DNA of 49,484 nt from a virus, in the IMG/VR virus record IMGVR_UViG_3300035156_000182, positions 1-49,484 of that record. One strand, 5' to 3'. The position numbers and the translations under genes are program-made. The notes under the pieces are model-generated. The model did not search any database, had not been told where the DNA came from, and saw nothing but the letters and a program-made list of their open reading frames with translations. Below, in pieces: positions 5,234-46,690 of the stretch. The first letter of the stretch is position 1; every line of letters begins with the position of its first letter.

Positions 5234-6199
5234 TTAGATGCCGTCGGCGTAGGTTGCCGACGCCGGGCGCGTCCAATCCGTGCCGCCGATGCGGAAAATG
5301 CCGGGCACCAGCCAATTCATCGGCCCGTTCTGCCACACCGGCAGGAACTGGAACGGCATAGGCATATGGAACTTCGCCACGCGCCCGTTCCGCGCATAGG
5401 CGATCATGCGCTTCGTGCCGCCAGCGCCGGCCGTTTCCAGCTCGCGCAGGCCACGGATGCGCAGCGGCTGGCCCGTGCGTGCGGTGTAGCTGTTGGCGCG
5501 GTTGAGGAAGGTCAACAGCGTTTCCGACGTGTTCGGAATGACGGTCAGGTCGAGCGTTTGCATGACGCTGAACGGCAGCAGCACCGTGTCGGCCATCACG
5601 ATTTGGTTCGACGCGTTGAAAGGCGCGACGATTAGCGCGTTCAGGTCGCGAAGCACCTGCGCGGGCGTCTTGTTCGCGAACAGGCGCGACGCGGGCGTGC
5701 CGGCGGTGACGCCGTTCTGCACGCCGTCGGCCGCGACGTTCCCCTGAACGATGCCGGGGTTGTTGATGAGGCCGGTCAGGCCACGGTTCGGGTCGCCGAG
5801 CAGGCCGACATAATAGATGAACTGTTCGGCACCCTCGCGAGCGTAGAACGCCAATTCATCCGACAGGTTGATGCCCGCCAGCCGCGCCTTGTTGACGTTG
5901 TCCAGGTTGAATTCGTAACCCAGCGCGCCAAGCTCGTAAGCGAAGTTGGTCGAACCCTTGTTCAGATCGGCCAGCGGCATGGTGTTGGCCGCGCCGTTGT
6001 ACCAACGCGCCTGCCCGGTGCCGTCGAGCGTGAATCGCGTGATGCCGTTCGCCCACGGGTCGCCTTCGGTCTCGACGACGACAAGGTCGTTGATGTCGAT
6101 TGCGGGATATTCGGCGCGCTCGACTTCGGTCGCAATGCGATAGGTCTGGTCGGTCACGAAGCCAAGCGCGGCGGTCGCATTCGGGTAAGCGGTAGTCAT
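5234..6199 (-). CDS. Major capsid protein (DUF2184-like, HK97-fold class)
   Basis: 321 aa. It follows scaffold and decoration genes in the classical order. The C-terminal FHMPMPFQFLPVWQNG segment and overall pattern resemble the DUF2184 capsid family as I remember it. Confidence 0.75.
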   Translation of the reverse strand: MTTAYPNATAALGFVTDQTYRIATEVERAEYPAIDINDLVVVETEGDPWANGITRFTLDGTGQARWYNGAANTMPLADLNKGSTNFAYELGALGYEFNLDNVNKARLAGINLSDELAFYAREGAEQFIYYVGLLGDPNRGLTGLINNPGIVQGNVAADGVQNGVTAGTPASRLFANKTPAQVLRDLNALIVAPFNASNQIVMADTVLLPFSVMQTLDLTVIPNTSETLLTFLNRANSYTARTGQPLRIRGLRELETAGAGGTKRMIAYARNGRVAKFHMPMPFQFLPVWQNGPMNWLVPGIFRIGGTDWTRPASATYADGI

Positions 6200-6720: not shown

Positions 6721-7683
6721 TTACTTGCCGTATTTGTTCCGGCGGTCGGCGCGCACCTTGTCGAGATCGGCCACGGCGGTGTTCCCGTCCGCGCTGAACG
6801 ACGGCGACAGGGCGTCGGCCGAGCTGCCGGCGGGCGCGGCGGGGGTGACGTTGCCGCCCTTCGCCATGATGCTGGCGATGATGGCGGCCGGGGTCGCCTT
6901 CGGCAGCTTGTCGTCGCTCGCAAAGGCGATGACATCGGCATCGGCCACGGCGTTGAACGCGGCGACAAGGTTGTCGCGATCGGCCGGCAGCACCTTGGTC
7001 GCGGCGACCAGGGCGTCGACCTGCGCGGCGTTGGCCGTCTCGCGTGCGGTGCGCTGTTCAGCGGCGAAGGTCTGTTCGCGCTCGGCGGCAATGCGCTCGC
7101 GCTCGGCGATTGCGGCTTCGCGCTGCGCGATTTCGGCTTCGGTTGCCACGGTGTTGTTCTCCACTGGTGCGGCCGGTGCGGCGGCGGGGGGTTCTGAAAC
7201 GGTGATGACCGGCGTCGGCGCGGCCTCGAACACGATCGCGGGCGCCGGGTCGCCGGTGACCGACATCACGTCGTCGGCCGAGAATGCGAAGGCCTGCGCG
7301 AGCGGGGGCATTCCAGGAATGCCGACAGCCGCGCCGCCGAGGAAGCCAAGGTGCTTCGGCGCGAGCTTGCCGGGCGTCGGGTTCGACGGGTGGTTTTTCC
7401 CGAAAAACGCCATCGACCGGCCGAGGATGGTCGACCCCTTCACGCCGTCGATGATCGGCTTAAAGGCCGGCAGCGTTTCGGGCACGTCGGCGAACAGCGA
7501 ATTGCCCTCGGCACGGAACTTCACAATGGCCCCGTGCGCGGGGCTGTCGGTCGTCGGGTGGCCGATGACGTTCGGAACCGGGTGCGCAGCGCAATCGAAC
7601 GCGGCGATGTCGGCCAAGTCGGCCGCCGTGATCCCCGCTGCATTCGCAGCCGCGTTTCCCGCGCGAAAAACTTCGATTTCCAT
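6721..7683 (-). CDS. Capsid scaffolding protein, GpO-like (possible protease-scaffold)
   Basis: The real start is taken as ATG 7683 (MEIEVFRAGN..) with RBS GAAAAGGTGAC. The N-terminal half resembles P2 gpO (..GHPTTDSPAHGAIVKFRAEGNSLFADV..HLGFLGGAAVGIPGM). The C-terminal half is Ala/Glu/Arg coiled coil. The 518-aa track ORF extends further upstream into low-quality sequence. Confidence 0.6.
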   Translation of the reverse strand: MEIEVFRAGNAAANAAGITAADLADIAAFDCAAHPVPNVIGHPTTDSPAHGAIVKFRAEGNSLFADVPETLPAFKPIIDGVKGSTILGRSMAFFGKNHPSNPTPGKLAPKHLGFLGGAAVGIPGMPPLAQAFAFSADDVMSVTGDPAPAIVFEAAPTPVITVSEPPAAAPAAPVENNTVATEAEIAQREAAIAERERIAAEREQTFAAEQRTARETANAAQVDALVAATKVLPADRDNLVAAFNAVADADVIAFASDDKLPKATPAAIIASIMAKGGNVTPAAPAGSSADALSPSFSADGNTAVADLDKVRADRRNKYGK

Positions 7684-7773
7684 GTCACCTTTTCGCCCGT
7701 TTGCCCCCGCGCGCGAAAGCCTGAACGGTCGGGCTGGCGATTTATTCGGCCTCGACGAATGTTTCCTGTTGCG

Positions 7774-7793
7774 TTTGGCCAAAACTTTGGCCA
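7774..7793. repeat. Direct repeat TTTGGCCA x2 at 12-bp spacing (first copy inside palindrome TTTGGCCAAA); possible regulator site
   Basis: Read directly: tttggccaaaactttggcca. It lies in the 147-bp divergent gap between the scaffold gene (-) and the first plus-strand cassette gene. Confidence 0.4.
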
Positions 7794-7830
7794 CACCGTC
7801 ATTCGTCAACAGCGAATAGGAACTGCCGCC

Positions 7831-8049
7831 ATGTACCGCACCAACGCCGGACTCGAATTCGCTTCCTACACCGACGCTTGCATTTATCACGGGGCCGACA
7901 CCCCCGCCGACATCGCCGCCGAAATTGCATATGAACGCGAGGAAGCGCGCCGCGAATATCACGGTGAAGCGATGATCCAGGATGCACGCGCGGCCGGGCT
8001 GGTCGTCGGCTTCGAAGCGTGGCCCGACGCGCACGCCTTCCCGTTCTGA
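7831..8049 (+). CDS. Hypothetical protein (first gene of the plus-strand cassette)
   Basis: 72 aa (MYRTNAGLEFASYTDACIYHG..), with AGGAA 8 nt before the ATG. It is the 3' part of track ORF 7351..8049, whose 5' part is antisense to the scaffold gene. Confidence 0.5.
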   Translation: MYRTNAGLEFASYTDACIYHGADTPADIAAEIAYEREEARREYHGEAMIQDARAAGLVVGFEAWPDAHAFPF

Positions 8050-8094
8050 CCTGCCGGGGCTTCGGCCCCACCCTTTCCCGCTGGAGCGCCCCAC

Positions 8095-8598
8095 ATGCTG
8101 ACCATCGAACAACAAACCGCGAACCTTTCGACCGTCGTCGACAATCTGCTGCGCAACGCCCTTCCGCGTGCCGGCAGCGTTCACGCGGCTGTCGCCTATA
8201 TCGCGCACGTCGCGACGCCAGCCGTCGGCGGCGGTATTCTCGCGCTGCCCGCGCCGAGCGGCCAGCGCGCGCGGCACCGGGGCGTCGCGATCATGGTCGA
8301 CGACAGCGGCTATTTCGCCGAGGCCGGTGCCGCAACGTCATTCGGCTATGCCGACACGGTCGACGAAATCCGCGCCGAGATTGACGACCATTTCGCCGAG
8401 GAAGCCGAGCACTATCGCGACCAGGATACGCCCGCCGATACGCCGTCGCTCGACGACACGTTTGCCGAGCTGGAGCGCGCCGACGACACCCCGACGGCCT
8501 CGCGCTGCCCCCGGTGCGGCATCACGATCCTGCGCGCGTCGGGCAGCGGCCCCGACTGCGCGAGCTGCGCGCGTCGCTATCTCGGCACGAATTCTTAA
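8095..8598 (+). CDS. Hypothetical protein with an acidic region and a C-terminal CxxC..CxxC zinc ribbon
   Basis: 167 aa with GGAG 8 nt upstream. It has an acidic stretch, DEIRAEIDDHFAEEAEHYRDQDTPADTPSLDDTFAELERADD, followed by CPRCG..x12..CASC. Confidence 0.6.
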   Translation: MLTIEQQTANLSTVVDNLLRNALPRAGSVHAAVAYIAHVATPAVGGGILALPAPSGQRARHRGVAIMVDDSGYFAEAGAATSFGYADTVDEIRAEIDDHFAEEAEHYRDQDTPADTPSLDDTFAELERADDTPTASRCPRCGITILRASGSGPDCASCARRYLGTNS

Positions 8599-17162: not shown

Positions 17163-17570
17163 TTACGCGTTCGCAGCGGTGATGCTGAACGTCGAAATGA
17201 GAATGTTCTGACCTGCCGCCGCGTTGGTGTTGTCGAGCGTCATGTCACCGCCGCCGCCGGTGGCCGTGACGGTGCCCTGCATATGACAGGTCGTGCCGTC
17301 GCTGGCGTAGATGCGGAAATGGCCGACGACGCCGGCCGCGTCCGCGCTGGTGTCCTCCCAGGTTCCCGACTTCGCCTTCGATCCGGCGGCAGCGGCGGCC
17401 ATCCAATCGGCGGGCAGCGCGATGGTCGCGACCACGGTTCCGGTGTCGGCCGCTGCGCAGCTCGCCGGGGCCGCGCCGGTGCGGAGCTTCAGAACCGCCG
17501 ACACGCCGATCGCGACTTCGATGGCATCTAGGCGAGCGTTACGAACGGCGACGGATTGCTGAAGTGCCAT
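17163..17570 (-). CDS. Hypothetical protein (first gene of the fibre-like module)
   Basis: 135 aa with ATG 17570 and an AGGGA RBS. Preceded by a 126-bp non-coding gap. Confidence 0.55.
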   Translation of the reverse strand: MALQQSVAVRNARLDAIEVAIGVSAVLKLRTGAAPASCAAADTGTVVATIALPADWMAAAAAGSKAKSGTWEDTSADAAGVVGHFRIYASDGTTCHMQGTVTATGGGGDMTLDNTNAAAGQNILISTFSITAANA

Positions 17571-17696: not shown

Positions 17697-17945
17697 ATGA
17701 CAGAACGCACGGAAACGCTCGACGACGCGGTCGCGGCAGCGCGCAGTCGCTGGCGGTTTATCGCGATCGGCTTGGCCTTGGTCGGCGCGACGAATATCGC
17801 GAACACGTTCCTACACGTTCGCGAGCGCGACGGCGCGGCGGTCGAGCCGGTCATTTGCATTGCTGCGATAAACGACCCAGCTCTAGCGAAATATGCGGTC
17901 GAAAAGCGTGGTGACCGCCAGGGCGGCGGTTTCAAGCGACCATAG
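17697..17945 (+). CDS. Possible small membrane protein (uncertain)
   Basis: 82 aa with GGAG 6 nt before the ATG and one TM (WRFIAIGLALVGATNIANTFL). Its 3' end overlaps the Mu F-like gene by 63 nt on the opposite strand, so it is uncertain. Confidence 0.3.
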   Translation: MTERTETLDDAVAAARSRWRFIAIGLALVGATNIANTFLHVRERDGAAVEPVICIAAINDPALAKYAVEKRGDRQGGGFKRP

Positions 17946-18866
17946 CTGTTGACCCTCGGCGCGCTCGGCCGCGACGTCGAGCATCGGCAGGCCGGGCATC
18001 CGGTCGGGGCGGTCGTTTTCCACCCGCGCAATCTCGGCGAGCTGTTGCATGACCCCGCCGCCCGGCGCGGCGAACACGGGGCGGCCGAGCCGCGCTTCAC
18101 GCTCGGCAAGGTCGGCGTCATCGGTCACGCCGGTGCGGTATTTCGCGAGCTGCGACCGGGTCATCGGCACAATCGAACAGCGGCAGCGGAACCCGAGCGG
18201 CACCCACCAGCGAGTCCAAAACGGATGGTCGACCGGCAAAATGATGCCATCCCATGCCCGGTGGTCGGAAAGCGGCGACTTCGGCGGTTTGCGCACGCGG
18301 GTGTCGCGGGCGGTGATTGCGCGCAGGTACGGCAGCGCGGCCTTGCCCTTCTGAATCCGATCCCACTGGCCCGCGCCGCGCGCCACGCGCAGGTTCGTGT
18401 CATAGATCAGCGCCACCCGGCGCGCGATTTGCCCGTCGTCGCCGTTCAGCCATCCTTTCGCCTTCAGCGTCGGAACGATCAGCTTGGCGAAATCGGCTTC
18501 GGTGCCGCGCCGGTTCAGGTTGTCGACGTAGGCGAAATATATGTCGTCGATGATGTCGAGGCCGGCGGTTCCGGCGGCCGTGAACGCGCGCCCGTATTCG
18601 TCGCGGCCTAGATCATCCCACCGGGCAATGGCGACAGGGTCGCGCGCCTCGACGTAGCGCACAAGGTCGCTGGCATCGACGTTCAGCGACAGGGGGCGGA
18701 ACTGGCCGGTGCCCGCCTGCGCGTCGAATGAGTGAACGGGGCAGGTCATGGCCGCTTCATATATCGAATTCGTCGACGAACGCGGGGAAATAATCGGCGC
18801 GCCGCCAAGGCGAAGCGGGGCGGCGATGCCAGCGGCCCCGCCACCCCCATGGGTGTTCGACGCCAT
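17883..18866 (-). CDS. Head morphogenesis protein, Mu F / SPP1 gp7 family
   Basis: 327 aa. Motif run: PYLRAITARDTRVRKPPKSPLSDHRAWDGIILPVDHPFWTRWWVPLGFRCRCSIVPM (the D.R.R..H...G....FW....P....CRC signature). Confidence 0.75.
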   Translation of the reverse strand: MASNTHGGGGAAGIAAPLRLGGAPIISPRSSTNSIYEAAMTCPVHSFDAQAGTGQFRPLSLNVDASDLVRYVEARDPVAIARWDDLGRDEYGRAFTAAGTAGLDIIDDIYFAYVDNLNRRGTEADFAKLIVPTLKAKGWLNGDDGQIARRVALIYDTNLRVARGAGQWDRIQKGKAALPYLRAITARDTRVRKPPKSPLSDHRAWDGIILPVDHPFWTRWWVPLGFRCRCSIVPMTRSQLAKYRTGVTDDADLAEREARLGRPVFAAPGGGVMQQLAEIARVENDRPDRMPGLPMLDVAAERAEGQQLWSLETAALAVTTLFDRIFR

Positions 18867-18925
18867 CCCGGCTATCCCAACCCTTTGCGCGGCGGTCGAC
18901 GATCATGGCGGCCAGATACGCGAAC

Positions 18926-19060
18926 GGCCCCACCGTTGCCAGTGGGGCCGCGCCCCGACTGCCGGGGGGTGGCGGTCAACGTTGGTCGGTCCACCAACTA
19001 TGCCACCCGTGACAGGTCATCCCAACCGCTGCCCCTGTCCTACCACGCCCGAGGGCGTGG
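18926..19060. other. Cluster of three GC-rich stem-loops in a 254-bp non-coding gap
   Basis: Stem-loop A: GGCCCCAC-cgttgcca-GTGGGGCC (18926-18949). Stem-loop B: nested GGGTGGC..GTTGG..CCAAC..GCCACCC (18967-19008). Stem-loop C: CCACGCC-cgag-GGCGTGG (19043-19060). They lie between the lipoprotein gene and the Mu F-like gene. Confidence 0.35.
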
Positions 19061-19120
19061 CATGAGGCGGGCGACCTGAATTCGAATTCGTTATGCGCGA
19101 ACGCGTCCGGCGTCAAGCGA

Positions 19121-19327
19121 TCAGCGGGGCGGGCACCCGTCGTCGGGCAGCGTCGGGTTCGTGTCGCGCGGCGGGCTTCCGATCGGCTCGGCGGGGCAAC
19201 CGTCGGGCGAAGGAGTCGCGCTCGGCGCGGGGGTGTTGCCACCGATATGGTCGACGCGATCGCCGCACGCCGACAGGAACAGGAACGGGGCGAACATAAG
19301 CGCGAGGGTGGTCAGAACGGTTTTCAT
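19121..19327 (-). CDS. Small lipoprotein (moron-like)
   Basis: 68 aa with a GGGAGC RBS. Signal peptide plus lipobox: MKTVLTTLALMFAPFLFLSAC. The mature part is Pro-rich with 2 further Cys. It is flanked by locally AT-richer sequence. Confidence 0.65.
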   Translation of the reverse strand: MKTVLTTLALMFAPFLFLSACGDRVDHIGGNTPAPSATPSPDGCPAEPIGSPPRDTNPTLPDDGCPPR

Positions 19328-19362
19328 TTTCGGTGCTCCCTTTTATTCGGTGGCAGCGAATA

Positions 19363-19581
19363 TCAGAACGGCGACCGCTTCGCGACCTTTTTCGCACGAC
19401 GGTGCCGGCGGCGATCCCGCTGCCGTGCATCCGCCGCGCTGCCCCGCGCGCAGCGCTCCAGGTCGTCGAGGTCGGGCGACAGCGGGTCGAGCACTTCGGC
19501 TTCGATCGCCGCGAGGATGCCAGCGGTGCCGCCCTGAATTCGCGTCGTCACTGGCAAGCTCGCGTTACGCCGTCGCAACAT
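19363..19581 (-). CDS. Hypothetical basic protein (uncertain)
   Basis: 72-aa ORF 16 nt downstream of the portal stop, with a weak RBS. Confidence 0.35.
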   Translation of the reverse strand: MLRRRNASLPVTTRIQGGTAGILAAIEAEVLDPLSPDLDDLERCARGSAADARQRDRRRHRRAKKVAKRSPF

Positions 19582-19597
19582 ATCAGGCCGTTACCTG

Positions 19598-21742
19598 TCA
19601 TTCGATCCCGGCAGCAGTCGTCGCACGCTCGGCCGCCAGTGGCAACGCCAGCGCGCGCCCCAGGTCAGCGGTCGGGAACTGTTCGAACGCCTGAAGCATC
19701 GCGACGCGGAATTCGGCCGGGGTCAACGGGCGGCCTGCCGCTTCGAATTCGGCCACCTTGTCGACCATCGCAGCACCCATCGCCGCGAACAGCGGGTCGG
19801 TGTTGTTCACCAGCTCGGCGGTCAGGGCGTCGATGCGGTCGAGCTGGTCAGCGCTGAAGGTCGGCGCAACCATGCCGTGAAGCGGGTCGGTTTTCAGCGC
19901 TTCCCATATTTCGGGGCCGAACTTCAGGGCGTCGATGAACGGGTCGACGTTGGCGAAGTCGACCGTTTGCGGCCCCTTGGCGAAGGTGACGTGCGCCCGG
20001 TATTCCGACCAATCGTGCGACGCACCGGCCTCGACCAGCCCTTCGTGACGCCAATCGAATGACCGATGCTTGAACATAAGCACCGTCGAATCGCTGCCGA
20101 ACGTCTCGACGACACGGGGGCCGCCGGCCTCGACGGTAACGGTGCCATCCTCGTTTGACCCCCATTCGCTCGGCATATCGAACCAATCGACGGCGTTGCG
20201 GCTATGGCAAAGCGTGACGTGCAAGTCGGCCGCGTCGACCAGCCCGGTGAACCCCTGACTGCGCGCCCATTTCAACAGCTCGCCGCCGTTCAGCAGTTTG
20301 CGCGAGATATACAGGGGGCGCGGGTCGCCGGCCGCGAACACGGCGACACGCTGGTCGGCCGGATTGTCGTTCGCGGCAGCGCCACGGGCACCCCCCATTC
20401 GGGGGGCAAGGGCCGGCGGGGGCGGCGGTGGCGGGGCCTTTTCGTAGCCGTCGCCATAGGTTTCGCGAAAGCTGTCGTCGGTGCGGTTCCAGCCGAGTGC
20501 CTTCAGCTTCGTGTCGCGCTCGGCCGTGGTGTTCGTGTCTTCGGCTTCGTCGAACTGGCGGTACACCAGGGGCGCGGCGACGTCGGGGCCATGGTTCCAC
20601 ATGGTCAACCACACCGGGGCGGTGCGGTTGAACGACTCGTGAAATTCGTCGCTGTCGGCCGTGACGATCGTCGCCGCCACGCCTTCGTGCACCGACGCTT
20701 GGTTGCCGTTCAGCCCGTCCGCTGCCGCGCGCGACGTGCCGGGCTGGCCGATGATGACCCCGCGCAGCGCATCGTTCATTTCGCCGATGAATTCGGGGTA
20801 ACCGTCCGCGCCGCCGGTGCGGGTCGCTTCGATGAAGTGCGGGCGAAGGTCGGGGCCGCCGCCGGTGACGTCGGTCGGGGGCGACGGCAGGGCGACCGCG
20901 CTGTCACGGCCGAGCGCTTGCGCGGCCTCCAGCGTTTCGGCGATGACCTTGGCGTCGCTGCCCGGCGGGAAGTAGGCGACCGCCGTCGGCTGGCCGTATT
21001 TCTCCAGGTACAGCGCCCAAAACTGCATGACGTTGCGCTTGAACCAAATCGGCCAGTAGCACCAATGCGCGAGGCCGGTGCCGTAGTGCTGGAAATCGTG
21101 CGTGCCGCCGCTGCGGTACGTCCAAAAACGGTTGGTCGGCACCGGCACGCCGTCGGAGTCTTGCGGGGCTTTCATCCGCAATTCGCCTTCGTTGGTGAAG
21201 GCGAACCAATTGCGGTCGGGCACCACGACGTCGCGCAACCACACGATCGTGCGGCCATTGTGCTGGCGCATTTCGAACAGGAATTCGCCGATGGCGTAGC
21301 CGTACCACCGGCCATAGAACATTAGCTTGGTGACGCGATCCCACCCGACCGCCTTCATCATGTCGCGCAGGTCGTCTGCCGCCTGAACCGACCGGGGGTC
21401 GTCGGGGTTGCCCGGCTCGACAATCCATGGGGCCTTGGTCAGCGCAAGTTGCCGCTGCGAAAACGCCGTTTCGGCGACATCGTCGTCGAGTAGGGCATTG
21501 AACAGCTTCAGGTCGCGTTGACCCTCGCGCTGGAGCGTCGAGTCTTCGTTGACGGCGAGCTGCGAAAGCCATGCCGCGCCGAGGGCGAACCCGTCATAGG
21601 CGCGGGTGAACATGCCCCCGCTGGTGTCGGGCGCGGTGCCGTCGGTGGGCGACGCCTGCCGAAGCGGGTCGGCTCGCTGCTGGCGCGCGAGGCTTTCGCG
21701 AAGGCCGCGACCAAGGCGATAATCGGTGGGCGAAAGTGCCAT
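19598..21742 (-). CDS. Portal protein (DUF935 / Mu gp29-like) with an embedded 2H-phosphoesterase-like domain
   Basis: 714 aa, directly after TerL (TAGATG junction). DUF935-like core: WYGYAIGEF..FWTYRSGG..YGTGLAHWCYWPIWFKRNVMQFWALYLEKYGQPTAVAYF. After a poly-Pro linker, aa ~470-620 carry two H-x-T-x motifs (LHVTLCHS at 508, AHVTFAKG at 584). Confidence 0.8.
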   Translation of the reverse strand: MALSPTDYRLGRGLRESLARQQRADPLRQASPTDGTAPDTSGGMFTRAYDGFALGAAWLSQLAVNEDSTLQREGQRDLKLFNALLDDDVAETAFSQRQLALTKAPWIVEPGNPDDPRSVQAADDLRDMMKAVGWDRVTKLMFYGRWYGYAIGEFLFEMRQHNGRTIVWLRDVVVPDRNWFAFTNEGELRMKAPQDSDGVPVPTNRFWTYRSGGTHDFQHYGTGLAHWCYWPIWFKRNVMQFWALYLEKYGQPTAVAYFPPGSDAKVIAETLEAAQALGRDSAVALPSPPTDVTGGGPDLRPHFIEATRTGGADGYPEFIGEMNDALRGVIIGQPGTSRAAADGLNGNQASVHEGVAATIVTADSDEFHESFNRTAPVWLTMWNHGPDVAAPLVYRQFDEAEDTNTTAERDTKLKALGWNRTDDSFRETYGDGYEKAPPPPPPPALAPRMGGARGAAANDNPADQRVAVFAAGDPRPLYISRKLLNGGELLKWARSQGFTGLVDAADLHVTLCHSRNAVDWFDMPSEWGSNEDGTVTVEAGGPRVVETFGSDSTVLMFKHRSFDWRHEGLVEAGASHDWSEYRAHVTFAKGPQTVDFANVDPFIDALKFGPEIWEALKTDPLHGMVAPTFSADQLDRIDALTAELVNNTDPLFAAMGAAMVDKVAEFEAAGRPLTPAEFRVAMLQAFEQFPTADLGRALALPLAAERATTAAGIE

Positions 21743-23482
21743 CTACATGATTCCCCGTGCTCGGCTTGGTGCGCTGAACCCTCGGCCCTGACTGGCATGG
21801 ATGCGGCGCGACAACTCGGCTTCCCTCGATTCGTCGATCAGCGGGGCGACTTTGCGGTCGTCGCCGGTCGACGCGTGACGCTGGTCTGACGTCGCCGGTG
21901 CGAGCTGGTTGAACGCATCCGCCGACGCATCGACCAAGTCGTCATAGCGCGCATTCGGAAAGTTGCACACTTGGTCGAGCCATTCATGATTCCACGACCC
22001 GGCAACCAGGTACACGTTCCCGTGCTCGGCTTGCGTCGCCAGCGGGCCGGCGCGCGAGGCCTTCGACCCCACCGGGCGCACGACCTTCAGGATGAAGCCG
22101 ACCAGCAGGCGCACCATGTCGCGCACAAGGTATTTGCCCCCGGCGGCCGGATCTTCGGGAATACGGATGGTCACCGCGCGGGTGTCGGTGTCGGCGATCG
22201 CCTTCACCCGCGTTTCGGTCTCGGCTGGCCCCTGCTGGAACTGGCCAGCGTGCGCGATGATGAACTTGCGGGCGGGGGTGATACCCATAAGACAATGCGC
22301 GGTGTTGTCGGGGTCGCTGGTGGCCGTCTTTTCGGTCGCCGCGAAATCCCATGCGCGAACCCATTGCGTGACCTGCCGCACCAAGGGTTCGTCGCTGCCG
22401 ATGATCCGACTCGAGCCTTCCGACCCGTCGCCTTCGAACCACTCGCGCTTGAACAGGCCGCCGTCGCGCGGGGTTGGCTGCTGCTGATACTGGCCCGCAT
22501 AGGCATATGCGCCCTTCACCTGTTTGGTCGCCTCGACGGTCGCCCGACTGAAGCGTTCGGGGAACAGCAGGTCGCCTTCGTGCTCGCGCGGGTCGGCGAA
22601 AAACAGCTCGCCGTTCACATAGGTGCGGCACTTCGCGTCGATCAGCCGGCCGCCCTCTTTGCGAGTCGCTTCGTATTCCATCGGCAAATTCAGGTGAACA
22701 TAGGGCAGCTTCAGCCGTAGCACTTCGCCCGACACGTCCCGTTCGTGTAGCCGCTGCATAACCCCGACGATCACGGATTCGTTCGGGTCGCGCAGTCGAT
22801 CCGATAGGCCTTCGCGAAAGGTTTTCACCGTTTTGCCGCGCACCGTGTCGGATTCCGCGCCTTCGGTGTCGTGGGGATCGTCGAATATCAGGCGATCGCC
22901 ACCGCCGCCGGTCAGCTTCGAAAAGGGGCGACCCTCGCGCTGGCCCCGCGCGCTGTTGATGATGAGGGTTTCGCCCCACTTATCGGTGGGCTGAACCGCG
23001 TCGCCCCATAGACGCTGGAACCACTCGCTTTCGACCAGCAGGCGCATTTTGCCCGTGTCGCGGATGATGTTGGGCCGGCTGAACGACGTGGTGAGATAGT
23101 GCAAGTGAGGCTTGCCGAGCGGCCCCCATTCCCATGCCGGCCAGAACACGGCCACCATCGTCGACTTCGACATGCGCGGGGGCACGTTGATGAGTAGCCG
23201 CTTGATGTCGCCCCGGCTGACCGCCTCCAGGTGGTCGCATATCGCTTCGATCGCCCACCCGCCGATGAACTTAGTTCCCGGCTCGACGATCGGCCACGCT
23301 TCCTGAACGAACTGGTACAGCGACTTGCACCGGCGGCGGATCGCCTCGGCGTCACGGTTCAGGCTTTCGCGTTGCTCGCGCTGTTCGTCGGCGCGGATGC
23401 TTTCGCGAAGTGCTTCAGCCAGATTCGCCGGCAGGTCGAGCGGCGGCACGGGTGATAAGGTCGAGGAGGAGTCGCTTTTCAT
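21743..23482 (-). CDS. terL: Terminase large subunit
   Basis: 579 aa. Walker A-like NVPPRMSKST and Walker B-like DRLIFDDPHD, with a C-terminal nuclease-type region. It lies downstream of TerS and upstream of the portal. Confidence 0.85.
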   Translation of the reverse strand: MKSDSSSTLSPVPPLDLPANLAEALRESIRADEQREQRESLNRDAEAIRRRCKSLYQFVQEAWPIVEPGTKFIGGWAIEAICDHLEAVSRGDIKRLLINVPPRMSKSTMVAVFWPAWEWGPLGKPHLHYLTTSFSRPNIIRDTGKMRLLVESEWFQRLWGDAVQPTDKWGETLIINSARGQREGRPFSKLTGGGGDRLIFDDPHDTEGAESDTVRGKTVKTFREGLSDRLRDPNESVIVGVMQRLHERDVSGEVLRLKLPYVHLNLPMEYEATRKEGGRLIDAKCRTYVNGELFFADPREHEGDLLFPERFSRATVEATKQVKGAYAYAGQYQQQPTPRDGGLFKREWFEGDGSEGSSRIIGSDEPLVRQVTQWVRAWDFAATEKTATSDPDNTAHCLMGITPARKFIIAHAGQFQQGPAETETRVKAIADTDTRAVTIRIPEDPAAGGKYLVRDMVRLLVGFILKVVRPVGSKASRAGPLATQAEHGNVYLVAGSWNHEWLDQVCNFPNARYDDLVDASADAFNQLAPATSDQRHASTGDDRKVAPLIDESREAELSRRIHASQGRGFSAPSRARGIM

Positions 23483-23963
23483 CGGTGTTCAGTGCCCCCA
23501 GGTCGAACGGCAGGTTGACGTTCGATCCCTGCCCGGCTGGCGGTGCCGTGTCGGGAATGAACGCCCCGACGTCGACATGCCGGGCGATGACTTCAAGCAA
23601 CCCCTTCGCTGCGCGCAGGTCACCTTTGCCCGTCGCAATGTCCAGTAGGATCATCGACTTTGACAGGACATAGGAACGGTCGACGCTGACATTCATCGCC
23701 GTTTCGGACAGGGCGTTGCCGATATACTTTTGCACGTTCGGCCGCTTCATAAGCTGCCACGCGGCACTTGCGGCGTTCGTCTCGGCGTAGCCGGCTTCGA
23801 TCGCAGCGGCCCGCTTCCAATAGTGCTGACCTTCGCCGATCAGCCGCAACCCGGCTTCGCAAAACGCCCGTTCGCGCACGGTCAGGCCGTCGGTTTTCGA
23901 CCGGCCTTGTTCGTCGACATTCACCAGCGGGTCGATCAGTGCGTCGATTGCGGTGTCGGTCAT
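23415..23963 (-). CDS. terS: Terminase small subunit (Terminase_2-like)
   Basis: 182 aa. LTVRERAFCEAGL..AAAIEAGYAETNAASAAWQLMKRPNVQKYI matches the HTH pattern of small terminases. It overlaps TerL by 68 nt. Confidence 0.75.
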   Translation of the reverse strand: MTDTAIDALIDPLVNVDEQGRSKTDGLTVRERAFCEAGLRLIGEGQHYWKRAAAIEAGYAETNAASAAWQLMKRPNVQKYIGNALSETAMNVSVDRSYVLSKSMILLDIATGKGDLRAAKGLLEVIARHVDVGAFIPDTAPPAGQGSNVNLPFDLGALNTDEKRLLLDLITRAAARPAGESG

Positions 23964-42654: not shown

Positions 42655-42947
42655 TAGGCGACCCCGTAGAGCACGTTATAGACGCCCGACGGCGGAAACT
42701 GGCCGGCCGAATTCTTACTGCGCGCCCATGTCAGGGTGGTGCCGGCGATCGTGATTAGCGGCGTGACTTCGCCTGTGGCCAGCACCATGGCGAACGGCGT
42801 GCCCTCGGCGAACGACGCATTGACCAAGCTGCCGTTCGGGTTGCTGGCATAGTCGATGGTTAGCAAGCCGAGGATGGTCGCCGTCGTCATCGTTTCGTCG
42901 AGTGACACGGTGCCGTCGGCATCCCATAGGCGAAGGCTGAACCCCAT
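42654..42947 (-). CDS. Hypothetical tail-module protein
   Basis: 97-aa ORF with a 1-nt overlap (TGATG) onto the giant tail gene. Confidence 0.55.
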   Translation of the reverse strand: MGFSLRLWDADGTVSLDETMTTATILGLLTIDYASNPNGSLVNASFAEGTPFAMVLATGEVTPLITIAGTTLTWARSKNSAGQFPPSGVYNVLYGVA

Positions 42948-45900
42948 CAGGTGATTTCGAGCTGCACGCGCAGGCGGTTCGCGTCGTATCCGCGCAGGCC
43001 GTTATTATCCAATTCGAAGCGCTGGCCGCTGGTCGCCGTGCGCAACAGGCCAATCGTGCTGGTGATGGCCGACAGCGACGCGACGTTGAAATCGCCCTGA
43101 CCGACTTGGTTTTTCGTCGCAAGCGAACCCTGCCCGGCGAAGCCTGCCGCCGTGTTTCGCGCCGTCACGTCGGCGTGAAACAGGAACGCTAGATCAGTGA
43201 TGCGGTTCGGCGTGCTGTTGACCAGCGCAACCGCGCCATAAAGGCCTTCGCCCGCGCCAACATTTAGGGCCAGGGGCAGGAAGCCGATATAATGGTCGTC
43301 AGCGTAGTATTCGACGCGGTCGATGCCGTTCCATACGCACTCGAACACAGTATTTTCGCCGAAGGTCACGAAGTCTCGGGACGTTCCAATTGATACGCCC
43401 GAACCGCCGATCGAATAAACGTACCAATTGCCGTCGCTGCTGCGATGCCATCCGGCAATTTGAACGTAGGTCGCCCCCGGTTGGGCGGTCGCGTATTTGC
43501 TGAAACCCATGAAGGTTCCGGCTGTCGGCAACTTGCCTCGAATGCGGCAAGGGCCTCGAACGAAACGGTTGGTGGCCGCGTAGCAGCTCCAATCGCCGGT
43601 TTCGCCTCGGGCGTGTACGCCGCTGCCGCTGGCACGGGTAGGCGCGTTCGGCACGAATACGGTGTCGGCGGTCGCGTTGTCGGCCGGTCGGCCGTCGCCG
43701 CCGACGCCCGCCGACCAGTTGGTGACGGGCACGATTTCGATTTCGTCAATTATCAGTCGGTCGGGGCCGTTGGTCCAGTTATGAACGACAGGCGACGCGA
43801 ACTTTTTCGTGGCGGTGAACCGGAATTCGAAAACCGACAGGCCGATGCCGATTGCCGCATTCTCGCGAAAACCAGTTTGCGCGCTGACGTTGCCGCTGAC
43901 CGCCCCGCCGCCGCCATTGGCCGCGTCGCCTTCATAGACTCGCAGGTACACGCCCGACGGCGTGGCGTTGCTCGCGTACATGATCGCGCGCAGCACGTAT
44001 TCGCGCCCGACCAGCATCGGAACCGCGCGCCACGCTATCGCCGCACCAGCCGAGGCGTTTCCGTTCACGTTGCGCGCAATGTAGAAAGCTGCCGCGCCCT
44101 TCACGGCCTCCAGCGGGCCGGTGACGCCGATTGTCATGCCGCCCGCGTCTTCATAGCCGGGGATGGTTCCCGCTAAGGTGCCTTGCTCGGCGTCGCCGTT
44201 GAAAACGAGATTGGTGCCCCGCGTGGCGAATAGCTCGGGCTTGCCGGCCCCGTCGACCCGCGTCGCGAAATCGGCCGCGTTCAGCGTGGCAAGCGCGCCC
44301 TGCCCCGTGAAGCCTGCCGCCACGCCCTGCGCGGTGATGGTGTTCGCGTCGGTCAGCAGCGTGCCGCCGTTCGCGGTCAGAATGTCGCCGCCGAGGCGCG
44401 GGCGGTATGCCGCGTTGAAATTGCGGCCCCATGCCCCCCAGGTCGAGCCGTTCGCCGAAGCGCGTTCGTATATCTGGCCGAGGCTGTCGACCAGCGTTTG
44501 CTTCACGGGGCCGCCGCCGTCGTTCGGCCATTGCGTGACCGTCAACAGGTGACCGAAGCCGCTAGACCCTGTCCCGGCAAAGCCGGCATTCTTGAATTCC
44601 TGCCGCTCGCCGACGCCCAAGTCATAGTAATATTGCGGGCTGAAATCGAAATCGCGCGTGTCGAGGATGCGCCCGGCATATTCCTTCGGCTTGGTTGCGC
44701 CGCCGACGTCGAGCGTGAAGTCGGCCGTCGACTTCGTGGCAAGCGCGCCTTGGCCGAGGATCGACGCGGCCGACCCCTGCGAAGTGATGACCTGCGAATT
44801 GTTCAGCACCACGCCAAAACTGTCGGTGACGCGACTGCCGAGCGATGCGAAATTGAGGGTGGCCAACGCGCCTTGGCCGACGAACCCGCCAGCCGTCCCC
44901 AGGCTGGTGATGACCCCCCCGTCGGTCAGCCAAGCGTTACCCGCTTCGTTCACCAGCCCGTTGTTCGGGCCGAGGCGCATCCATCCGTTCGACTGTAGAA
45001 AATCCAGCTTACTGGTGGGCTGGCCGACCAGCGTCGCCCATGCGGCCTGACCGGCGATCGCGGCGGCGACGCCCTGCGCGGTGATGAGCTGCGCGGCGGT
45101 CAGAATGTTGCCGCCGCCGTCCGTGATGCGCGACCCAACCTGCGCGTAGTTGAGCGTCGCAAGTGCCCCTTGCCCGGCAAATCCGGCCGCATTGTTCGCG
45201 CTGGTCACGTCGGCGTTGTTCGCCGGCTTTTGCGCGCCACCGACTTGCGTCGCGAAGTCGGCGGCATTCAACGTCGCCAATGCACCTTGGCCGGCGAATC
45301 CTGCCGAGTTGCCGAGCGACGTGATGACCTGCCCGTTGTTCAGGATATTGCCCTGCGCGTCGGTCACGCGCGAACCGAGCTGCGCGAAATTCAGCGTCGC
45401 AAGCGCGCCCTGACCAGCGAACCCGGCGGCCGTGTTCAGGCCGGTAACATTCGCGCCGGCTTGCGCAGGCTTCAGCGACTCGAGTGTCGTGCCGTCGGCA
45501 TAGGTGACGTCGGCCCCGGTCAGCAGCGCGGCGGATATTTCGCCATCGTTGTGCACGCGAGCGTTGCGCAGGTATCCCACCCGGCGGGTCAACAGCGGCG
45601 GGAAATAGGCCTCGCGCCGAACTTCCTGCGAAACCAGGGTCGCGGTTGACGCGGTCCACTCCCACCGGCCTATGACAATCTGGCCGGCCCCGGTCAGCGT
45701 CCAATTCAGCGACGCACCGGCAAGCAATCGGTCGAGCACCCCGCCGACCGTTTCGCTGGTGTCATCGACGTGCACGCCCGACGTGACGTTGCGCCACCCG
45801 GCGGCGGCGGCCGTGTTCGTCACGGTCATGCCCGGCGCATAGGTCGCGGCGACCAGCTCGGCGAGATAGGCGGGCACGTAGCTGCCGGGGTGCGCGCCGT

Positions 45901-46690
45901 TCAGGTCGGCGGTTAGGGGGCCGCTCGGCGTTGTCCACCACTTCACGCACGCGATCGACGGGGCGACCACACCGCCACCAGCAGGCGCGGCCGTGGCGCG
46001 CAGGGCGTTCAGCGTGGCGATCGCCGACCCCTGCCACCCGACCGCCGTCAACGGCCCTTCGCGGCCCTTGTCTTTCACCGCCGCAAACCCGGTGACCGCG
46101 CCCGACAGGGTGGTGTCGCCGAATTCGTAAATGCTGTTCGCCTTGTCGAGCAACCGCCCTTCGACGTTGAACACGGCCCCCCACGACCGGCGGCGCGGGC
46201 GGCCGGTGGCGTCGCTGCCGCCCTCCAGGTCGCCGGTGCCGAGAAAGTTGGTGACCAGCGCGGGCTTCGCGAGTGCACCCGACAGGTCGGAAACGATCAG
46301 GGTCAGCACGCCTTTGTCGACGCTCGCCGAGGCGACGCGGCCGACCAGCTCTATTTTCCATGTCGGTTCGCCGGGGGTGGCATCGTCACCCGACCGAATT
46401 TCGATCGGCGCGCCCGGCCAATAGAAGCTGGCGAGCGTGGCCGCCAAGGCCTTGTCATGGGTGAAGCACGCGACCGACGCGGTTTGCGGGATGGCCCCAC
46501 CTGTCCAACCCTCGGCGGTGAACTCCAGCGCGGCGGTGAAGCGCGGCAGGCGCACCCCGCTGGCGCGCCAATCGTTCCCGCCGCGATAACCCGTGTAGCC
46601 GCGCGATCCGCCGCCGGCCAAGCGCAGGGGAACGGTGACGGTGCCACCAGCCACCAGCGGCGCGGCCTCAAGTAGAACGACAAGCGCCAA
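42947..46690 (-). CDS. Giant tail fibre / host-specificity protein (1247 aa) with 8 copies of an AGFAGQGALATLN motif
   Basis: TTG start at 46690 with an AGGAA RBS. It overlaps the tape-measure stop by 9 nt outside the stop codon. The repeated motif is NTAAGFAGQGALATLNFAQLGSRVTD and variants. The C-terminal tip is TSGQRFELDNNGLRGYDANRLRVQLEIT. Confidence 0.7.
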   Translation of the reverse strand: MALVVLLEAAPLVAGGTVTVPLRLAGGGSRGYTGYRGGNDWRASGVRLPRFTAALEFTAEGWTGGAIPQTASVACFTHDKALAATLASFYWPGAPIEIRSGDDATPGEPTWKIELVGRVASASVDKGVLTLIVSDLSGALAKPALVTNFLGTGDLEGGSDATGRPRRRSWGAVFNVEGRLLDKANSIYEFGDTTLSGAVTGFAAVKDKGREGPLTAVGWQGSAIATLNALRATAAPAGGGVVAPSIACVKWWTTPSGPLTADLNGAHPGSYVPAYLAELVAATYAPGMTVTNTAAAAGWRNVTSGVHVDDTSETVGGVLDRLLAGASLNWTLTGAGQIVIGRWEWTASTATLVSQEVRREAYFPPLLTRRVGYLRNARVHNDGEISAALLTGADVTYADGTTLESLKPAQAGANVTGLNTAAGFAGQGALATLNFAQLGSRVTDAQGNILNNGQVITSLGNSAGFAGQGALATLNAADFATQVGGAQKPANNADVTSANNAAGFAGQGALATLNYAQVGSRITDGGGNILTAAQLITAQGVAAAIAGQAAWATLVGQPTSKLDFLQSNGWMRLGPNNGLVNEAGNAWLTDGGVITSLGTAGGFVGQGALATLNFASLGSRVTDSFGVVLNNSQVITSQGSAASILGQGALATKSTADFTLDVGGATKPKEYAGRILDTRDFDFSPQYYYDLGVGERQEFKNAGFAGTGSSGFGHLLTVTQWPNDGGGPVKQTLVDSLGQIYERASANGSTWGAWGRNFNAAYRPRLGGDILTANGGTLLTDANTITAQGVAAGFTGQGALATLNAADFATRVDGAGKPELFATRGTNLVFNGDAEQGTLAGTIPGYEDAGGMTIGVTGPLEAVKGAAAFYIARNVNGNASAGAAIAWRAVPMLVGREYVLRAIMYASNATPSGVYLRVYEGDAANGGGGAVSGNVSAQTGFRENAAIGIGLSVFEFRFTATKKFASPVVHNWTNGPDRLIIDEIEIVPVTNWSAGVGGDGRPADNATADTVFVPNAPTRASGSGVHARGETGDWSCYAATNRFVRGPCRIRGKLPTAGTFMGFSKYATAQPGATYVQIAGWHRSSDGNWYVYSIGGSGVSIGTSRDFVTFGENTVFECVWNGIDRVEYYADDHYIGFLPLALNVGAGEGLYGAVALVNSTPNRITDLAFLFHADVTARNTAAGFAGQGSLATKNQVGQGDFNVASLSAITSTIGLLRTATSGQRFELDNNGLRGYDANRLRVQLEIT

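Follow-up and report, generated by a model that had tools for sequence, protein, structure and literature searches.

The closest described counterparts of the element reported here are the Acb1 proteins of phages T4 (gene 57B) and FBB1 (structures 7t26/7t27), which counteract antiphage signaling through cyclic oligonucleotides (CBASS). In these stand-alone enzymes of roughly 145–152 residues (144 in the 7t26 chain), a tetrad formed by two HxT motifs is accompanied by the stacking residues Y12, W74, F107 and W147, while E141 contacts the N6 of adenine and residues 145–152 form a C-terminal lid (Hobbs et al. 2022, PMC9117128). Here we describe a domain assigned to the same family that is instead internal to the 714-residue portal protein encoded by a viral DNA of 49,484 nt (IMG/VR record IMGVR_UViG_3300035156_000182), the whole of which is referred to as the window. 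The domain shares with T4 and FBB1 Acb1 a 2H fold (predicted here) and the HxT/HxT tetrad, and possesses a conserved Tyr and Glu that may correspond to their N-terminal stacking Tyr and C-terminal Glu. However, it is only ~21% identical to 7t26, possesses a Pro at what we take to be the position of the lid Trp, and carries an added GGxR segment.

Among portal proteins, gp29 of phage Mu (9khx/9knu) has a homologous core, and the Mu genome likewise has the gene order terminase-portal-MuF and a head maturation protease. Yet Mu gp29 is only 512 residues long and possesses no enzyme domain. Furthermore, the virion structure does not include its last 124 residues, a loss that the authors of the structure attribute to cleavage by protease I (PMC11915804), and the tail of the window's portal has no detectable similarity to those 124 residues. 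A second group comprises the Phage_portal_3 (PF06381) portals, such as Pam3 gp3 (8hds) and those of phiPSA1 and RHEph04-06, in which a domain of the same Acb1 subfamily likewise follows the portal core after a linker. In these proteins, the domain lies at the extreme C-terminus, with typically no more than 12 residues beyond it, and an Asp-Trp pair aligned with the lid is often kept. In the clade of the window's portal, by contrast, the domain is internal, flanked by a duplicated FxA motif, and followed by a conserved helical tail of ~85 residues. The paper on the Pam3 structure never mentions the Acb1 domain.

The covalent attachment of a conflict enzyme to a morphogenesis protein of the capsid interior is also a feature of the head-packaged effector fusions known as polyvalent proteins, and the arrangement at this locus is alike in recurring over four portal Pfam families and a prohead protease. 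In the section that deals with such fusions, Iyer et al. (2022, PMC9503650) note 2H-portal and 2H-MuF combinations, and propose that they are packaged in the head and injected to act against nucleotide signaling. The original prediction for this locus, made from the window's sequence, had held virion delivery of such an enzyme to be a route not yet described, and in this respect it had been anticipated. Their description is a single comparative-genomics sentence without analysis at family level, and the passages on the subject contain neither the topology of the insertion nor the duplication of the junction motif, nor the correspondence with the region missing from Mu. The fusion is undescribed in the original Acb1 paper, in the other examined papers naming both Acb1 and portal, and in the literature found on BCSR5 and on portals with LigT, such that Iyer et al. 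is the only account found; in addition, both PF06074 and PF23474 are already assigned to this protein in the public record of its contig. The portal-Acb1 fusion is thus not new, but of a widespread, computationally predicted kind. What appears to be new is, first, its internal insertion in Mu-type portals, where the tail is kept and the junction motif is present twice; second, the correspondence of the insertion site with that portion of the Mu portal which the virion lacks; and third, the almost entirely portal-borne nature of this Acb1 subfamily. These three points refine a known idea and do not define a new category.

Vibriophage ICP3 Gp15, an ejectosome protein that antagonizes CBASS (bioRxiv 10.1101/2025.07.23.666291), provides a functional precedent for a virion ejection protein with an anti-CBASS role. 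Gp15 is nonetheless a different kind of molecule: it is a stoichiometric inhibitor of CapV, does not degrade cGAMP, and has neither a 2H domain nor a link to the portal.

Identity of the portal and of its Acb1 domain

By family threshold, fold and gene position, the gene product is a Mu-type (DUF935/Portal_Mu) portal protein. Its core scores 242 bits against Portal_Mu (cutoff 23.9) and matches phrog_113, with portal families also being returned by PHROGs, and hhalign aligns residues 81–413 to residues 65–385 of Mu gp29 with a probability of 99.4. With a full-length AlphaFold model (predicted local distance difference test, pLDDT, of 85.1) as the query, Foldseek ranks two portals highest, 8rka of JBD30 (E=7.5e-17) and 9khx of Mu (E=1e-14), and the same search also retrieves 7t26 for the insert. 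By analogy with Mu, the protein would be expected to form a dodecameric ring at a single capsid vertex. An identical 714-residue protein (P0002) is called on a public contig of 49,498 bp, and the protein occurs on two independent contigs.

The segment that lies between the portal's two linkers belongs to Pfam Acb1 (PF23474), which it matches with E=3.2e-28 and 98.7 bits against a curated cutoff of 27, over profile positions 2–140 of 144 (139 covered). The generic Pfam model 2_5_RNA_ligase2, by contrast, reaches only 15 bits against its cutoff of 27, and over a partial stretch. NCBIfam holds no model for either the portal or the Acb1 part of the protein, while the portal family phrog_146 of PHROGs itself includes the Acb1 domain. 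When the single sequence is searched against those of the PDB, it retrieves the portal of cyanophage Pam3, 8hds (residues 462–610 of 621, E=9e-27), and matches FBB1 Acb1 weakly, with both HxT motifs aligned. A profile built from 22 domain sequences strengthens both matches, with E=1.2e-17 for FBB1 Acb1 7t26 over residues 3–143 of 144, and E=3.6e-51 for the Pam3 portal over residues 464–617.

Structure prediction gives the same picture. An AlphaFold2 model of residues 455–714, calculated from an 89-sequence alignment, has a mean pLDDT of 86.9, with values of 93–98 across the Acb1 domain. When this model is compared with the PDB by Foldseek, the top matches are 9q2y/9q2g, a phosphodiesterase of Burkholderia phage BCSR5 bearing the molecule name 'Anti-CBASS protein Acb1', and 7t26/7t27. 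Entries 9q2y, 7t26 and 7t27 have a probability of 1.0 and target-normalized template modeling (TM) scores of 0.66–0.76, the 7t26 match having an E-value of about 3e-7 and a TM score of 0.76. Escherichia coli LigT, other 2H enzymes and cyclic phosphodiesterases are significant matches of lower rank, and in the viral model library BFVD the best matches are again named Anti-CBASS protein Acb1. Residues 476–619 are therefore members of Acb1 and, in the predicted structure, adopt a compact 2H alpha/beta fold; that the domain is an Acb1 and that it is inserted into the portal leaves very little room for doubt. The original prediction of a 2H phosphoesterase at 19883–20335, which corresponds to residues 470–620, is borne out by the profile and structure searches alike. 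Its account of the sequence itself (the 714-residue open reading frame (ORF), the motif positions and their spacing, the poly-proline linker) was exact, as was its observation that the portal exceeds the Mu type in length.

The two catalytic motifs, centered on His508 and His584, are 76 residues apart and are the only H-x-T motifs in the protein, where about one would be expected from composition. A φ-H-φ-T-φ pair spaced by 50–110 residues arises in 0.01% of 20,000 sequence shuffles. By itself, such a pair is suggestive; it is the profile searches that make the assignment solid, and both motifs align with the two HxT motifs of 7t26. A whole-protein search identified 88 other clusters at 90% identity, sharing 40–73% identity with the window's portal and combining Portal_Mu with Acb1 in 672–743 residues; many of them lie on contigs of 41–52 kb. 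Conservation of the two histidines, which the original prediction had made a test of its assignment, is nearly complete in the 89 domain-bearing homologues: His508 is kept in 87 and His584 in all 89. Thr510 is similarly retained in 88, and Thr586 in 86, with a further two having Ser. Moreover, R481, G540, G541, R543, P610 and E611 are each conserved in 89/89.

These data bear on the possibility that the segment is a catalytically irrelevant structural module, or else an artefact in which two genes have been joined by mis-assembly or mis-calling. Nothing specific speaks for either, although the tail and linkers do show that the extension has some assembly-related role. An artefact is contradicted by the presence of the same continuous ORF in the 88 other clusters and of the identical protein on two independent contigs, as well as by the lack of an internal start with a Shine-Dalgarno motif. 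A purely structural role is difficult to reconcile with a catalytic tetrad that is 97–100% conserved, and the existence of related portals without the domain shows that it is not needed to build a portal. Conservation and recurrence have thus effectively refuted this explanation, which we consider extremely improbable.

Topology of the insertion and spread of the domain

The poly-proline linker begins at residue 436 (APPPPPPPALAP), and both flanks of the domain are modeled with low confidence: the pLDDT falls below 50 at residues 448–470 and 620–626, which are presumably disordered. The tail that follows is predicted to form three helices (residues 631–668, 675–687 and 691–710, with a pLDDT of 80–89), in keeping with the helical tail of some 95 residues originally proposed. 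On its own, the tail matches no Pfam or PHROG family. It is nevertheless shared by related portals, as seen in a set of 105 sequences comprising the 89 domain-bearing proteins and 16 related portals without the domain. The latter align over residues 625–714, where at least 90% of the 105 sequences retain each of F629, R679, L683 and G712. In the domain-less portals, the core is joined to the tail only by a proline-rich, acidic linker of 21–55 residues. Because the tail is kept in these 16 proteins, Acb1 is a true insertion and not a terminal fusion, as the original prediction had argued.

Comparison of the two groups also reveals a duplicated motif at the junctions. In the closest domain-less relatives, one [AE]-F-[SA]-A motif closes the linker, and 'xxDxIDRL' comes after it. 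In proteins with Acb1, however, the motif occurs twice, both before and after the domain (residues 469–473, at 20324–20338, and residues 629–631, at 19850–19858). Upstream, in A-[EQ]-F469-A-A-x-D473, the Phe is present in 80/89 sequences and the Asp in 76/89; downstream, in F629-[SAT]-A631, the Phe is present in all 96 non-gap sequences and the Ala in 92 of them. The duplicated F-[AS]-A(-x-D/E) motif could represent either a duplication of the junction or a pair of protease sites. In a crude neighbor-joining tree of the portal cores, the domain-less portals are nested at several places within the domain-bearing clade, and the outgroup lacks the domain. This nesting implies that the insert is an accessory that is dispensable for portal function.

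The production of a separate Acb1-tail protein from an internal start was also considered and is unlikely. Neither ATG449 nor GTG468 is preceded by a Shine-Dalgarno sequence, and a Met occurs within the linker in only 37 of the 89 homologues.

Beyond Mu-type portals, an exhaustive phmmer search of residues 455–714 against 1.84 billion representatives (clusters at 50% identity) yielded 1,531 proteins at E<=0.001, and 1,145 at E<=1e-10. From the top matches, 98 relatives of at least 560 residues were scanned with Pfam. All 98 contain Acb1, and 95 also contain a portal family, namely Phage_portal_3 in 85, Portal_Mu in six, Phage_portal in three and Phage_portal_2 in one, while LigT_PEase is detected at E<=0.001 in only six (best 4.5e-06). 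Relatives longer than 700 residues append ADP-ribosyltransferase, PBECR3, NUDIX, Zeta-toxin or S78 prohead-protease domains. Among these top-match relatives of at least 560 residues, the Acb1 subfamily of this portal is thus almost entirely portal-borne. A crude neighbor-joining tree of 231 Acb1 domains clusters ~85 of the 99 Mu-type portal domains and scatters the others; the Mu-type portals may have acquired the domain once or more often.

The domain is present in 37 of 50,697 deposited phage records, for the most part inside genes annotated as portal or head protein. Named carriers include Pseudomonas phages phiPSA1, MR15 and psageK9, Rhizobium phages RHEph04-06 and the RHph series, Synechococcus phages, Pam3 and Aminobacter phage Erebus. 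None of these 37 records shows the insertion-type layout, and none covers the tail. In species-representative bacterial genomes, on the other hand, prophages of Sphingobium and Sphingomonas (L001-L005) carry the core, the Acb1 domain and the tail at 36–37% identity, and an Allosphingosinicella prophage (L030) carries the core and tail only. Portal-borne Acb1 is accordingly no curiosity: it accounts for 95 of the 98 scanned relatives and occurs in cultured phages. For annotation, this means that portals of at least 600 residues merit domain scans of their C-terminal extensions.

Two further observations concern the carriers. In the ~147-kb roseophages DSS3P8 (KT870145) and vB_RpoS-V10 (MH015255), a gene with the annotation prohead protease contains the same Acb1-type domain, which agrees with the combinations of Peptidase_S78_2 and Acb1 in the metagenomic relatives. 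In addition, a protein of 1,141 residues on a 341-kb contig (P0106) unites Portal_Mu, Phage_Mu_F and ADP-ribosyltransferase in one polypeptide, and is a further example of effector cargo on head morphogenesis proteins.

Possible substrate and route of delivery

For the locus as a whole, the explanation that we judge best, and probable, is that an accessory Acb1 domain of about 145 residues, inserted in a disordered C-terminal extension of the portal, acts against CBASS signals; it may do so by being packaged, clipped and ejected. In such a scheme, the portal C-termini would point into the capsid, so that each procapsid would take up twelve copies. Clipping of the extension by the head maturation protease would probably follow, possibly at the duplicated F-[AS]-A motifs, although these sites are speculative. 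The free enzyme inside the head would finally be co-ejected with the DNA, blunting CBASS signaling before phage genes are expressed, and the domain would be present from the first moment of infection.

With regard to activity, the domain probably acts as a cyclic-oligonucleotide phosphodiesterase with an anti-signaling function. Its family membership would predict metal-independent hydrolysis of the 3'-5'-linked cyclic di- or trinucleotide signals of CBASS, such as 3'3'-cGAMP, cUA or cAAA, by way of a cyclic phosphate intermediate, as performed by T4 and FBB1 Acb1. In the alignment with 7t26, Y478 (conserved in 88/89) and residue 578 (aromatic or His) each fall opposite a Tyr, and E614 (conserved in 81/89) falls opposite a Glu. 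By residue type and position, Y478 and E614 would match the base-stacking Tyr and the adenine-contacting Glu of Acb1, the numbering of the paper and that of the PDB entry being only partly reconciled.

Several observations weigh against the proposed scheme, the first of which concern the substrate. The sole Trp of the FBB1 7t26 chain, which is probably the lid residue W147 of Hobbs et al., aligns with Pro620 ('KTDP'), and only 9–11 of the 89 clade members have Trp at that position, as against 76 of 136 other top relatives ('D-W'). The window's protein lacks the aligned Trp, and its chain runs on into linker 2 and the tail. Moreover, the counterpart of W74 falls where the portal-borne family possesses an invariant GGxR insertion (G540, G541, R543) that is not present in FBB1 Acb1. 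Pro620 at the lid position and the GGxR insertion together indicate that the substrate specificity may differ, and the altered lid and added segment might give the portal-borne subfamily a substrate range unlike that of T4 Acb1.

The domain might alternatively be a 2H phosphoesterase with another substrate: RNA ends bearing a 2',3'-cyclic phosphate, as in LigT-like repair after attack by an anticodon nuclease, 2'-5' oligoadenylates, the larger cyclic oligoadenylates of type III CRISPR systems, or signals derived from ADP-ribose. Besides the replaced Trp and the invariant insertion, this is suggested by the nearest PHROGs family for residues 487–619, which is phrog_755, labelled 'RNA ligase' (E=2e-16), and by the significant, albeit lower-ranked, fold matches to LigT and cyclic phosphodiesterases. 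In their treatment of 2H fusions, Iyer et al. (PMC9503650) likewise name SMODS, cyclic-mononucleotide and CRISPR signals as possible targets. However, Acb1 ranks first in both the profile and the fold searches, with 98.7 bits where 2_5_RNA_ligase2 remains at 15 against a cutoff of 27, and the residues matching the stacking Tyr and adenine-contacting Glu of Acb1 are conserved. In addition, no RNA ligase, polynucleotide kinase or tRNA gene was found among the scanned ORFs of the window. A substrate of this kind consequently seems improbable to us. RNA repair of the LigT type was also rejected as the primary assignment, with 2_5_RNA_ligase2 below threshold and no RNA-repair partners among the scanned ORFs.

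The possible release of the enzyme can be considered in the light of phage Mu. Mu residues 385–388 map to residues 413–444 of the window's portal (hhalign, MAFFT), upstream of the insert; linker 1, the Acb1 domain and the tail therefore fall together within the stretch that the mature Mu portal has lost. Since the window also encodes a head protease, clipping inside the prohead is a reasonable expectation, and C-terminal processing of this portal by the head protease, with release of the domain inside the head, is plausible by analogy with Mu. The Mu correspondence would thus supply a concrete, testable release mechanism. Packaging is favored by the occurrence of the same domain on several capsid-interior carriers, together with other effector domains. 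On this analogy, head packaging followed by ejection of the domain is a serious possibility that falls just short of being probable. More specifically, the extension might constitute a device for loading and releasing cargo, in which Acb1 was inserted at a single F-[AS]-A processing site and thereby duplicated it, the protease excises an enzyme of ~160 residues inside the prohead, and twelve pre-made molecules destroy CBASS signals at time zero, ahead of phage transcription; in this full form the idea is tentative, and on balance unlikely.

The remaining difficulties concern the virion. The Pam3 virion portal 8hds is not among the fold matches of the Acb1 model, although the deposited sequence contains the domain, so that the domain is apparently unmodeled there, being either disordered or cleaved. 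The equivalent region of Mu is likewise missing from the virion, and by analogy the fragment could be expelled from the head, in which case it would not reach the next host. Furthermore, twelve copies per virion is a small dose, and a literature search found no activity, virion mass spectrometry or genetics for any portal-Acb1 fusion.

Such difficulties raise the question as to whether the same enzyme might instead work in the producing cell late in infection, either tethered to the portal or as an expelled fragment, with none reaching the next host. The premise is late synthesis of the portal in amounts far greater than the twelve copies of the virion, and by our own estimate the late-phase copies would outnumber those delivered by orders of magnitude. 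The position of the domain between two linkers predicted to be disordered suggests that it should be active while still attached, and both the absence of the homologous C-terminal region from the mature Mu virion and the Pam3 virion model, apparently without the domain, are in line with this explanation. So is the title of a preprint, according to which evasion of Type I CBASS is reportedly linked with mutations in virion assembly proteins. Nonetheless, co-expression alone would require no covalent fusion. The domain has been joined to four portal families and to a prohead protease, and 2H-MuF fusions are included in the sentence of Iyer et al. (PMC9503650) on this subject; all of these carriers are proteins of the capsid interior. 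It is also accompanied by other effector domains, of kinds that are typical of injected polyvalent proteins. Together, the carriers and the co-traveling effectors indicate selection for a location within the head, and an action confined to the producing cell appears possible, but somewhat unlikely.

If packaging and ejection of the Acb1 domain prove correct, a pre-made enzyme delivered by the virion would act before the alarm of the host builds, which would change the view of timing in the conflict between CBASS and phages. To our knowledge, the signal-removing enzymes and sponges Acb1, Acb2, Apyc1, Tad1 and Tad2 have been described as made after infection starts.

Genome context of the portal gene

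The portal gene lies within a standard head module on the minus strand, between the genes for the terminase large subunit and the MuF-like protein (Table 1). The latter scores 27.1 bits against Pfam Phage_Mu_F, slightly under the cutoff of 29.6.

Table 1. Positions of the portal gene, its parts and the other head genes in the window.
Feature	Residues	Position	Strand	Remarks
Small terminase		23415-23963	-	Head module
Terminase large subunit		21743-23482	-	phrog_38, E=2e-73; Pfam Terminase_6C; directly upstream of portal
Portal gene	714 + stop	19598-21742	-	Single ORF spanning core, linker, Acb1 insert and tail helices
Mu-type portal core	79-430	20453-21508	-	Pfam Portal_Mu PF06074 (DUF935), E=1.3e-71
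Linker 1	431-473	20324-20452	-	Poly-Pro/low-complexity; ends in A-x-F469-A-A-x-D473
Acb1-family 2H phosphodiesterase domain	476-619	19886-20317	-	Pfam PF23474
First catalytic H-x-T, His508-Val-Thr510 (LHVTL)	508-510	20213-20221	-	His508 codon 20219-20221
Second catalytic H-x-T, His584-Val-Thr586 (AHVTF)	584-586	19985-19993	-	His584 codon 19991-19993
Linker 2	620-631	19850-19885	-	Ends in F629-S-A631, the second copy of the junction motif
C-terminal helical tail of the portal	632-714	19601-19849	-	Common to portals without the Acb1 insert
MuF-like minor head protein		17883-18866	-	phrog_220, E=9e-42; without effector domain; downstream of portal
Virion protein		17163-17570	-	Head module
Head maturation protease		6721-8277	-	phrog_976, E=9e-33; candidate for clipping the portal C-terminal extension
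Major head protein		5234-6199	-	Head module

The window is a circularly closed assembly in which bases 1–127 are identical to bases 49358–49484. Because of these identical ends and the absence of host flanks, it represents the whole genome of a phage, 49,357 bp in length. A prophage origin was rejected on the same grounds, the terminal overlap of 127 bp being exact. No tRNA genes are present in the window. Its G+C content is 67%, which, together with the sphingomonad prophages described above, hints at a sphingomonad or other alphaproteobacterial host.

Two very large neighboring ORFs, of 1,247 residues (42947–46690, minus strand) and 913 residues (46700–49441, minus strand), contain no Pfam family, and the sole match of the former is phrog_8917, a PHROG of unknown function. 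The 730-bp gap between the portal and the MuF-like gene (18867–19597) contains ORFs that match no PHROG family; in the public record, two small genes of 62 and 68 residues occupy this gap, with ~255 bp uncalled upstream of MuF.

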